A DNA stretch of 64,000 nucleotides from Eremomyces bilateralis CBS 781.70 (lineage: Eukaryota): the NCBI GenBank assembly GCA_010015585.1, contig ML975163.1. One strand, written 5' to 3'. Shown here one piece after another: positions 55,223-55,966 of this stretch. Below the pieces are notes generated by a model, which worked only from the letters and a program-made list of their open reading frames with translations, made no database searches and had not been told where the DNA came from. A program made the translations under genes and the position numbers. How positions within the stretch are numbered: the first letter of the stretch is position 1; the number at the start of each line of letters is the position of its first letter.

Positions 55223-55966
55223 ATGCTTACCCGTAACTTCCTCGCCCTCCTCGCCGCCGCCGGCGGCGTCCTCACCGCCCCAGTAGTCGACTCCCGCTCC
55301 CCCGACCCTGCCGCCGCCCCAGAACCCGCCCCCGTCGCCGACCCAACAGACAAACCCGCCGACTACGGCGACTATGGCCAATACGGCAAATACGGCACCT
55401 ACGGCTCCTATCCCCCTCCAGGCAGCTACGAGAAATACGACCCCCCTCCAGGCGGCTACGCAGACTACGGTGCCTACCGCCGCTCTATCCGCGCTCCGAT
55501 CCGCCGACGTGATGACTACGGCAACTACGGCGACTACGGCCGCTACGGAGACTACGGCTCGTATCCTCCTCCTGGCAGCTATGACAAATACGACCCCCCT
55601 CCCGGCGGCTACGCGAACTACGGCACCTATCGCCGCTCGGTCCCCGCGCCGGTCGTGAAGCGGGACGACTACGGCAACTACGGTGATTACGGCGGGTACG
55701 GCGACTATGGCTACTATCCTCCTCCGGGCGGGTACGAGAAGTATGAACCTTCTCCGGGTGGATACGCGGACTACGGCGCCTATCGCCGCTCGGTCCCGGC
55801 GCCGGTCGTGAAGCGGGACGACTACGGCAACTATGGTGATTACGGCGGGTACGGCGACTATGGCTACTATCCTCCTCCGGGCGGGTACGACAAGTATGAT
55901 CCTCCTCCAGGTGGATATGCGGACTACGGGAGTTACAAGCGGGAAGCGGAGGCGGCGGAGAACTGA
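55223..55966 (+). CDS. Secreted Kex2-processed repeat protein (KEP), Tyr/Gly/Pro-rich; candidate RiPP precursor
   Basis: Signal peptide MLTRNFLALLAAAGGVLTA; four cores such as DDYGNYGDYGGYGDYGYYPPPGGYEKYEPSPGGYADYGAY, each ending in RR/KR and separated by SVPAPVVKR/SIRAPIRRR spacers; ends KREAEAAEN. The ORF track starts at an upstream non-ATG codon. Confidence 0.92.
   Translation: MLTRNFLALLAAAGGVLTAPVVDSRSPDPAAAPEPAPVADPTDKPADYGDYGQYGKYGTYGSYPPPGSYEKYDPPPGGYADYGAYRRSIRAPIRRRDDYGNYGDYGRYGDYGSYPPPGSYDKYDPPPGGYANYGTYRRSVPAPVVKRDDYGNYGDYGGYGDYGYYPPPGGYEKYEPSPGGYADYGAYRRSVPAPVVKRDDYGNYGDYGGYGDYGYYPPPGGYDKYDPPPGGYADYGSYKREAEAAEN
55358..55942 (+). repeat. 153-bp coding tandem repeat, about 4 copies (51-aa unit)
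   Basis: GCTCGGTCCC(C/G)GCGCCGGTCGTGAAGCGGGACGACTACGGCAAC recurs 153 bp apart (~55636 and ~55788); units 3 and 4 are the most similar. Confidence 0.92.

Follow-up and report, generated by a model that had tools for sequence, protein, structure and literature searches.

A secreted tyrosine–glycine repeat precursor paired with a UstYa-type oxidase gene in Eremomyces bilateralis and other Pezizomycotina

What does a fungus make from a secreted protein that carries, four times in tandem, a 40-residue segment with its tyrosines fixed at three-residue intervals? The question is raised by a gene at 55223–55966 (+ strand) in a 64,000-nucleotide stretch of contig ML975163.1 (assembly GCA_010015585.1) of Eremomyces bilateralis CBS 781.70, hereafter the window. 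The repeat array found there is that of a secreted multi-core precursor of Kex2 type, which belongs to a conserved family of Tyr-Gly-Pro peptides in the Pezizomycotina. In several distant lineages, genes of this family stand head-to-head with the gene for one conserved UstYa/DUF3328 oxidase. That the oxidase modifies these peptides is likely; more tentatively, we read the locus as one in which the cores are released by Kex2 and cross-linked at tyrosine by UstYa, with intramolecular bridges formed on an unusually long core.

The coding sequence has no intron and specifies a protein of 247 amino acids (aa), of which 46 are Tyr, 42 Gly and 36 Pro. Its N terminus passes from a basic residue through a hydrophobic run to the small residues T-A, followed by Pro. 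The signal peptide is called from inspection of this pattern rather than with a signal-peptide predictor, and the pattern is kept, with an A-A-P ending, in homologues (alignments A1, A2 and A5). The pro-region is followed by four tandem 51-aa units, each comprising a 40-aa Tyr/Gly/Pro core and a spacer with dibasic flanks. From the translation, the elements are as follows:

55223–55282, + strand: predicted signal peptide, approximately residues 1–20, with an inferred cleavage site.
55283–55357, + strand: Ala/Pro/Glu-rich pro-region of X-Pro and X-Ala pairs, from the sequence.
55358–55477, + strand: core 1, 40 aa, 11 Tyr.
55478–55510, + strand: spacer 1, RR...RRR, with dibasic Kex2-type sites at both ends.
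55511–55630, + strand: core 2, 40 aa, 11 Tyr, calculated linear monoisotopic mass 4455.81 Da.
55631–55663, + strand: spacer 2, RR-SVPAPVV-KR.
55664–55783, + strand: core 3, 40 aa, 12 Tyr.
55784–55816, + strand: spacer 3, RR-SVPAPVV-KR.
55817–55936, + strand: core 4, 40 aa, 12 Tyr.
55937–55963, + strand: C-terminal tail KR-EAEAAEN, then the stop codon; KR followed by Glu-Ala pairs is also found in many homologues.

Dibasic sites thus mark every unit boundary: cores 1–3 are followed by RR and core 4 by KR, and cores 2–4 are preceded by KR or RRR. Kex2-processed repeat proteins (KEPs) are recognized by at least three tandem repeats with dibasic (KR/RR) separators and by an N-terminal signal peptide; the precursor has the former and, on inspection, the latter. 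Tandem Repeats Finder reports a 153-nt period present in 3.7 copies with 84% matches, and 9-nt sub-repeats inside it. The cores are acidic (isoelectric point 4.05), and the calculated linear masses of the four are 4368.84, 4455.81, 4391.73 and 4389.72 Da. An ESM Atlas entry is identical to the precursor letter for letter, and its model is disordered (mean predicted local distance difference test score, pLDDT, 0.46); the best feature matches in that atlas (0.76–0.83) lie below the meaningful level, and the structural matches are low-complexity noise. Open reading frames (ORFs) on the reverse strand or in other frames over the repeat, such as 54974–56032 (− strand), have no family matches and were set aside as by-products of the repeat.

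Tyrosine occupies positions 3, 6, 9, 12, 15, 18, 24, 27, 34, 37 and 40 in 4/4 cores, with an extra Tyr17 in cores 3 and 4. The translation bears out the first-pass annotation of this DNA in its coordinates, its eleven invariant tyrosines per 40-residue core and a twelfth in cores 3 and 4, and the PPPG(S/G) and (D/E)P(P/S)PGG hinges are as it described them. The cores differ pairwise at 11–29 of 120 nucleotides and are therefore not fresh copies. The encoded residue varies at 12 of the 40 codons, none of them a Tyr codon (hypergeometric P = 0.009), and 6 of the 11 Tyr codons switch synonymously between TAC and TAT. Besides Tyr, nine Gly, five Pro, D2, K26 and A35 are invariant, for a total of 28/40 positions. 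Within these 28 codons no first or second position is variable (0/56), as against 17/28 third positions; in the 12 variable codons, all of which are “x” positions, 13/24 first and second positions vary. Tyr and Gly are jointly spared by all 12 changes (P = 2e-5). The repeat is a Y-G-x ladder with P-P-x-G-G hinges, not Y-x-x, and the preserved object is larger than the tyrosine spacing alone. Two statements of the earlier annotation need adjusting here. It had the intervening residues varying while Tyr never does; Tyr is indeed invariant, but so is the Gly that follows it at nine positions, so the two intervening residues are not both free. It also proposed that tyrosine spacing is what selection preserves, which is right in that the register is under purifying selection and too narrow in that Gly and Pro are equally invariant. 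The 9-nt sub-repeats show how a Y-G-x register can arise by slippage, and the exclusively synonymous variation shows that, once formed, it has been kept by selection.

The neighbouring gene, transcribed away from the precursor, encodes the oxidase.

52365–53444, − strand: UstYa/DUF3328 oxidase gene, four exons, 293 aa, from PF11807 matches, a spliced complementary DNA (cDNA) contig and homologues.
53444–53168, 53098–52967, 52895–52665 and 52606–52368, − strand: its coding parts, with the stop codon at 52367–52365.
53445–55222, no strand: divergent intergenic region, 1778 bp between the two start codons, holding no Pfam-bearing ORF and presumed to be a shared promoter region.

The Pfam scan covered stop-to-stop ORFs in six frames, of at least 120 aa across the whole window and, beyond 51.5 kb, of at least 55 aa. 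PF11807 matches fall on three exon ORFs, at profile positions 49–93, 94–162 and 167–220. The gene model is fixed by a spliced contig of sequencing run X1, which skips 52607–52664, 52896–52966 and 53099–53167, with GT..AG ends on the minus strand. The spliced protein has a hydrophobic N-terminal anchor at residues 58–75 and two HxxHC motifs, HQLHC at residue 175 and HVSHC at residue 212; a pair of such motifs serves as a criterion for UstYa proteins (PMC12048977). Over its full length it shares 60% identity with an Endocarpon protein and 61% with one from Aspergillus fischeri. For the last exon, identity is 99% to a protein of Eremomyces bilateralis CBS 781.70 and 56–72% to the other 119 matches listed. 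The listed matches are annotated “Tat pathway signal sequence” or “oxidase ustYa family,” and homologues come from Aspergillus, Penicillium, Exophiala, Monilinia, Lachnellula, lichen fungi and others.

The spliced oxidase contig shows run X1 to be cDNA-derived; the RNA label of the run is a guess, and its contig depth cannot rank expression. Contigs of the same type cover the precursor from 55268 to beyond 56100 and, taken with the oxidase contig, indicate very probable transcription of the two genes, each as a unit of its own and in divergent directions. The interval 53697–55093 between them is almost without cDNA cover, except for one 224-nt contig. This lone, low-depth contig (53956–54179) overlaps the ORF used for the N terminus of the deposited UstYa protein. 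The public model (P0029, Eremomyces bilateralis, 246 aa) starts in that upstream ORF, at 53822–54055 (− strand), and has no hydrophobic anchor. The cDNA contig and the homologues support the other first exon, 53168–53444 (− strand), which holds the anchor and gives 293 aa; the deposited N terminus is probably mis-annotated. Within the precursor, one run X1 contig omits exactly 153 nt (55646–55798), which is one repeat unit. The omitted segment has GC..CG ends, and 35 letters fit on either side. It is not an intron and reflects either a repeat collapse in the assembly or a three-unit length variant.

How widely is such a precursor found? A word-indexed search returned four proteins, and an exhaustive phmmer search of 1.84 billion cluster representatives returned 26 at E ≤ 1e-3, two at E ≤ 1e-10 and none at E ≤ 1e-30. 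A profile built from 12 short family members gave 146 matches, 120 of which are the matches listed. Those inspected are small proteins of 66–303 aa that share one plan: a hydrophobic N terminus ending in A-A-P, E/P/A-rich pro-pieces (such stretches also precede each Tyr-Gly block), one to seven Tyr-Gly units with P-P-x-G-G-Y hinges, and a terminal Y-x-x-Y-G-x-Y. A terminal Y-x-x-Y-x-x-Y followed by a basic pair or by KE/KN is present in 105 of 128 relatives. Across the 132 terminal units of these proteins, the residues after the final Tyr are KR (101), RR (16), KE (10), KK (3) and KN (2), and the pair that most often follows these residues is EA (22 units). Of the 132 units, 86% have Gly at −8 and 95% have it at −2, and in alignment A2 the C-terminal block has invariant P, G, G, Y, Y, G, Y and K.

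Over 129 relatives, the distance from one Tyr to the next is three residues in 1146/1588 cases (72%), compared with 9.2% ± 0.8 in shuffled sequences, although this share is in part circular, the relatives having been retrieved with this motif. A second mode, at seven residues (n = 176), spans the Pro hinge. Homologues have a median of 10 Tyr per unit, with a range of 4–29, and absolute positions are not fixed; the expected conservation of tyrosines among orthologues therefore holds for the pattern and not position by position. Nor is the charge at the x positions conserved: the window cores are acidic, while the homologues on three metagenome contigs (L009, L010 and L011) are Lys-rich. These contigs carry five- to seven-unit versions, with seven in L011, so that unit number also differs.

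The matches listed include proteins from Trichoderma, Coniochaeta, Colletotrichum, Mollisia, Pseudogymnoascus, Xylographa, Geoglossum, Endocarpon, Zymoseptoria, Cladosporium and Paraphaeosphaeria. Class is confirmed for three species only, in the Eurotio- and Dothideomycetes; further genera among the matches we take to lie in the Sordario-, Leotio-, Lecanoro- and Geoglossomycetes. The window gene is a multi-copy representative of this family of small secreted Tyr-Gly proteins, which is apparently undescribed and extends over several classes of Pezizomycotina. [quoted passage not shown] The KEP catalogue of Umemura 2020 (Table S2 and supplements) gives no sequences; the motifs looked for, 14 homologue accessions and the names Eremomyces, Acephala, Amylocarpus and Xylographa are all absent from it. 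The precursor could belong to a type such as its G-6, which we know by description only, as Tyr/Asp-rich and DUF3328-linked.

Several relatives carry additional features. Many have an amphipathic tail of approximately 10 residues (of the type A-V-D-W-V-K-S-L-F) directly after the final KR/RR, namely P0013, P0020, P0022, P0023, P0175, P0176 and P0186 and the metagenome loci L008, L012, L013, L015, L017, L019 and L021; the window protein has no such tail. This segment could be a follower/recognition peptide or a second released peptide. In a protein of Acephala macrosclerotiorum (P0004), Tyr-Gly units are separated by a Cys-rich, Ser/Thr-rich segment with eight Cys, so the module can occur in combination with secreted domains of other kinds. 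A Sporothrix bragantina protein annotated “snoRNP complex protein” (P0210) carries a Nop10 Pfam domain and probably stems from a gene model in which a Tyr-Gly gene and the adjoining Nop10 gene have been fused; the same two genes adjoin in L008, at 1668–2219 and 2919–3227.

The pairing with the oxidase recurs outside the window. In Endocarpon pusillum, the locus tags of the UstYa homologue (GJ744_000525) and of a Tyr-Gly protein (GJ744_000526) adjoin, both on a 107,020-nt contig, and in Paraphaeosphaeria sporulosa the tags DPSP01_009578 (UstYa) and DPSP01_009577 (Tyr-Gly protein) are likewise adjacent. For one further pair the longest contigs have the same length, 34,729 nt, and this is no more than suggestive. 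Scanning metagenomes with the motif of the family (alignment A2) gave 21 loci, which we searched with a UstYa hidden Markov model built from 89 homologues. In 4/4 distinct loci with more than 2.1 kb of upstream sequence (L004, identical to L005 and L006; L009; L018; L019), a UstYa gene lies on the opposite strand 1.0–1.8 kb upstream, in the same divergent layout as in the window, and the last exons of these genes are 58–63% identical to that of the window UstYa; over all the paired oxidases the range is 58–68%. Fourteen of the 21 loci, with at most 1.3 kb upstream, are uninformative on linkage. The L009 UstYa gene is intron-less and lies 1.1 kb upstream of its Lys-rich Tyr-Gly gene. Beyond the pair, each locus has its own surroundings (a 2EXR-family gene in both L004 and L018; glutamine synthetase, amidohydrolase and ABC-2 transporter genes in L019), so that the precursor–UstYa pair is the conserved unit. 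Since the published survey counts 9399 DUF3328 genes in 1461 strains, or approximately six per genome (PMC7329392), chance adjacency to the precursor is unlikely. The reading of the locus as a peptide precursor, made at first pass, fits the signal-peptide-like N terminus and the dibasic sites, and gains from this conserved oxidase neighbour.

By analogy with characterized enzymes, the UstYa partner favours enzyme-made cross-links between tyrosine side chains inside the secretory pathway. UstY enzymes are described as using a dicopper site and O2 to form the Tyr-O to Phe-Cβ ether of asperipin-2a (PMC12186524), and in that account the UstYa precedent is a Tyr-O to Cβ ether rather than the biaryl or dityrosine links also envisaged in the first-pass annotation. 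In the scheme that we propose, the pre-pro-protein would enter the endoplasmic reticulum, Kex2 would cut after RR and KR, and a carboxypeptidase would trim the basic residues, releasing four 40-residue peptides of ∼4.4 kDa that end in ...Y-G-x-Y. The membrane-anchored UstYa, acting in the secretory pathway, would then oxidatively cross-link Tyr side chains within each peptide. An ether from the phenol oxygen of one Tyr to the Cβ of another, between positions i and i+3, would close a ring that by atom count has 17 members. The blocks of six, two and three Tyr could accordingly be bridged into as many as 5 + 1 + 2 = 8 fused rings per peptide, with the Gly after Tyr providing flexibility and the Pro-Pro-x-Gly-Gly stretches acting as hinges. 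As to function, the wide conservation of the family and the unconstrained charge at the x positions speak for a physico-chemical role or one at the surface, and against a toxin with a specific receptor.

A bolder version of this scheme, which we regard as unlikely though worth stating, is that a two-gene module shared by several Pezizomycotina classes makes “tyrosine-ladder” peptides of approximately 30–40 residues, in which one dicopper UstYa zips up to eight consecutive Tyr(i)–Tyr(i+3) bridges into rigid fused 17-membered rings joined by Pro-Gly hinges, for a housekeeping-like role at the surface, in the wall or in metal handling and not as a toxin. Being shared by several classes, such a module is possibly old.

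Several observations weigh against intramolecular cross-linking of long cores by a dedicated UstYa. No product is known, and we infer each chemical step. The characterized UstYa cores have 4–9 residues, and in the sources describing them (PMC6514808, PMC10540207) a 40-residue substrate with 11–12 Tyr is without precedent. The three-residue register is in part a mechanical product of the 9-nt tandem sub-repeats. Some homologues have no terminal dibasic site, or have a Tyr that does not adjoin it. The Pfam scan finds no transporter, peptidase or reductase gene near the precursor. Locus L008, with 2.0 kb upstream and 4.2 kb downstream, has no UstYa gene within reach. For Mollisiaceae sp. and Pseudogymnoascus VKM F-4518, the tags of the family member and of the UstYa among the matches listed are far apart and their contigs differ in length, and in Acephala macrosclerotiorum and Mollisia scopiformis the contigs of the two also differ in length; in these species further paralogues may exist outside the matches listed. 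No Aspergillus or Penicillium family member is found among the 120 matches listed, though close homologues of the oxidase are common there. The pairing is therefore conserved in part, and linkage is not universal.

Two other accounts of the locus deserve weight, each of them improbable in our judgement. The first, which is also the second option put forward in the first-pass annotation, is that the product is a material, in which secreted peptides, or the uncut protein, have their tyrosines oxidized or hydroxylated by UstYa or by later wall oxidases and are cross-linked between molecules into the wall, a spore coat, or an adhesive or hydrophobic layer. Bulk properties do seem to outweigh a specific binding surface, given the Tyr/Gly/Pro composition, the variable charge at the x positions and the disordered model (pLDDT 0.46). 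Toxin clusters are typically patchy in distribution, whereas this family and its oxidase are broadly conserved across classes. The Tyr-rich motifs of resilin, extensin and mussel-foot proteins offer a possible further likeness. There is a fungal precedent in Ustilago maydis, where Rep1 is reported to be processed into 11 peptides, which assemble as amyloid fibrils on aerial hyphae (PMC3133707). On the other side, the UstYa reactions described in the reports cited here are intramolecular cross-links or tailoring of small peptides, the extensin hallmarks Ser-Pro4 and Y-x-Y are absent from the precursor, and the Pfam scan of window ORFs finds no laccase or tyrosinase near it. The window does carry one haem peroxidase-family gene:

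50171–51549, + strand: PF00141 haem peroxidase-family gene, with an Arg/Ser/Ala-rich N terminus read as a mitochondrial presequence.

This gene probably encodes cytochrome c peroxidase. We rejected it as a dityrosine-forming partner on account of its mitochondrial-looking N terminus and its absence from the four other loci examined. The remaining neighbours are genes or gene pieces for an RRM protein, SMN-like and SERF-like proteins and a DUF7598 protein, and from 49.5 to 64 kb the scan of ORFs finds no tyrosinase, methyltransferase, transporter, peptidase or reductase gene.

The second account, which we judge no more probable than a material, leaves the peptides unmodified: linear, Kex2-processed Tyr-Gly 40-mers with an antimicrobial, self-assembling or signalling function, beside a UstYa that is merely co-regulated or has another substrate. 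Gly/Tyr-rich antimicrobial peptides cut at basic sites are known in nematodes. In the catalogue of 7878 KEPs, 22% are DUF3328-linked and 78% have no DUF3328 gene nearby (PMC7329392), and some family members, in L008 and the four named species, appear unlinked to UstYa. Such an account fits poorly with the divergent pair, which recurs with a related UstYa in the window, in two named species and in four independent metagenome loci while other neighbours change, and with the low expected rate of chance adjacency. Moreover, Tyr is the residue on which UstYa enzymes act in the examples at hand, and in the same catalogue it is found in 65.6% of DUF3328-linked KEP repeats versus 38.2% of unlinked ones (PMC7329392).

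It is more doubtful still that the real core is a short dikaritin-type segment, most plausibly the C-terminal G-G-Y-x-x-Y-G-x-Y before the dibasic site, cyclized as in asperipin-2a with the remainder serving as recognition sequence or spacer: this block is the best conserved part of the family (the A2 invariants and the Gly at −8 and −2), and the known UstYa products of 4–9 residues are described as sitting in longer units (13–14-mers for ustiloxin; 27-mers with a 9-mer core for epichloecyclins; PMC6514808, PMC10540207), but the whole 40-residue scaffold is equally constrained in the window gene, the family as a whole also retains the upstream (Y-G-x)n block, and the Pfam scan finds no peptidase gene nearby for excision.

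Cross-linking of the whole released core by UstYa remains the reading that we prefer, and the locus matters whichever fate the peptides have. UstYa/DUF3328 genes are common in ascomycete genomes, and precursors are known for a handful only. A survey of lichen fungi found no precursors for its conserved UstY clusters (PMC12048977). The locus described here provides a concrete, transcribed candidate substrate for a very conserved orphan UstYa clade, with ∼60% full-length identity between Dothideomycetes and Eurotiomycetes. Unit length and Tyr density set the precursor apart from known dikaritin-type precursors, which makes it noteworthy for fungal peptide chemistry. If 11–12 Tyr are indeed processed in register, the product would have a new peptide topology and the enzyme would be a useful biocatalyst for multi-site cross-linking; if the peptides end in the wall instead, they would be a new kind of fungal structural material. 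Should the ladder of fused rings exist, it would greatly exceed every other eukaryotic ribosomal peptide in size and in density of cross-links. One of the many UstYa clades that are still orphans, those of lichen fungi among them, would then have its precursor.

The resemblance to structural proteins is one of composition. Plant extensins and insect resilin are Tyr/Gly/Pro-rich, low-complexity secreted proteins whose tyrosines are cross-linked outside the cell by peroxidases; here the extensin hallmarks are missing, and the loci have no peroxidase or laccase gene in common beside the precursor. The Rep1 repellents come from a basidiomycete and are probably of similar size, at tens of residues, and we know of no UstYa partner or Tyr register for them. 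They are alike in being Kex2-derived peptides that are described as surface material (PMC3133707).

Compared with dikaritin-type clusters, the locus has the adjacent DUF3328/UstYa gene (at 1778 bp), the two HxxHC motifs and Tyr in a repeated core. The accessory genes (tyrosinase, methyltransferase, transporter and S41 peptidase) are absent from the window in the Pfam scan, and no short core of 4–9 residues can be delimited, as the whole 40-residue unit is constrained and the C-terminal nine residues are the best conserved family-wide. Asperipin is not known outside a few Aspergilli, whereas the window pair spans several classes. As described, asperipin-2a of Aspergillus flavus (AprA/AprY) resembles our system in its secreted Kex2-type repeat precursor with a Tyr-rich core, FYYTGY, and in its single UstYa homologue, AprY, reported as essential and sufficient with no tyrosinase (PMC6514808). 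The product, from a four-gene cluster, is bicyclic through Tyr side chains and β-carbons (PMC6514808), and its Tyr side-chain to Cβ ether rings include a Tyr three residues from the next Tyr (PMC6514808, PMC12186524). The likeness rests on these descriptions rather than on sequence comparison. In contrast, the asperipin core has six residues and two rings, against a 40-residue unit with 11–12 Tyr here, and the apr cluster is described with a transporter and a reductase, neither of which the Pfam scan finds at the window locus. The accessory genes belong to the original definition of dikaritins and not, in the accounts consulted, to the revised one; asperipin-2a is likewise described without tyrosinase and peptidase (PMC6514808, PMC12048977).

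The ustiloxin and phomopsin dikaritins (UstA/PhomA with UstYa/Yb) share with the window locus a signal peptide, KR-separated repeats, DUF3328 enzymes with two HxxHC motifs and a cross-linked Tyr. As described, they differ in their cores of 4–6 residues, their Tyr–Ile link, and their tyrosinase and several tailoring enzymes, the genes for which are absent from 49.5–64 kb here. The epichloecyclins (GigA, with the DUF3328 protein GigB) are closer in architecture: a multi-core secreted precursor is cut by kexin, its units exceed the core in length (27-mers containing a 9-mer core), the Tyr is conserved without exception, and cyclization is reported to need the DUF3328 protein (PMC10540207). In that system, however, each core has one Tyr, as against 11–12 here, and the cluster as described includes a methyltransferase and a dedicated kexin, whereas no further cluster genes accompany the window pair. 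Finally, although their cores are short and their BURP-domain copper cyclases belong to an unrelated plant enzyme family, the plant burpitides (selanine A, arabipeptin A) are described as copper-dependent Tyr-O to Cβ ether macrocycles with 14 and 17 members, made from repeated cores and including a di-ether bridge that makes a single Tyr part of two rings (PMC11253845, PMC12186524).

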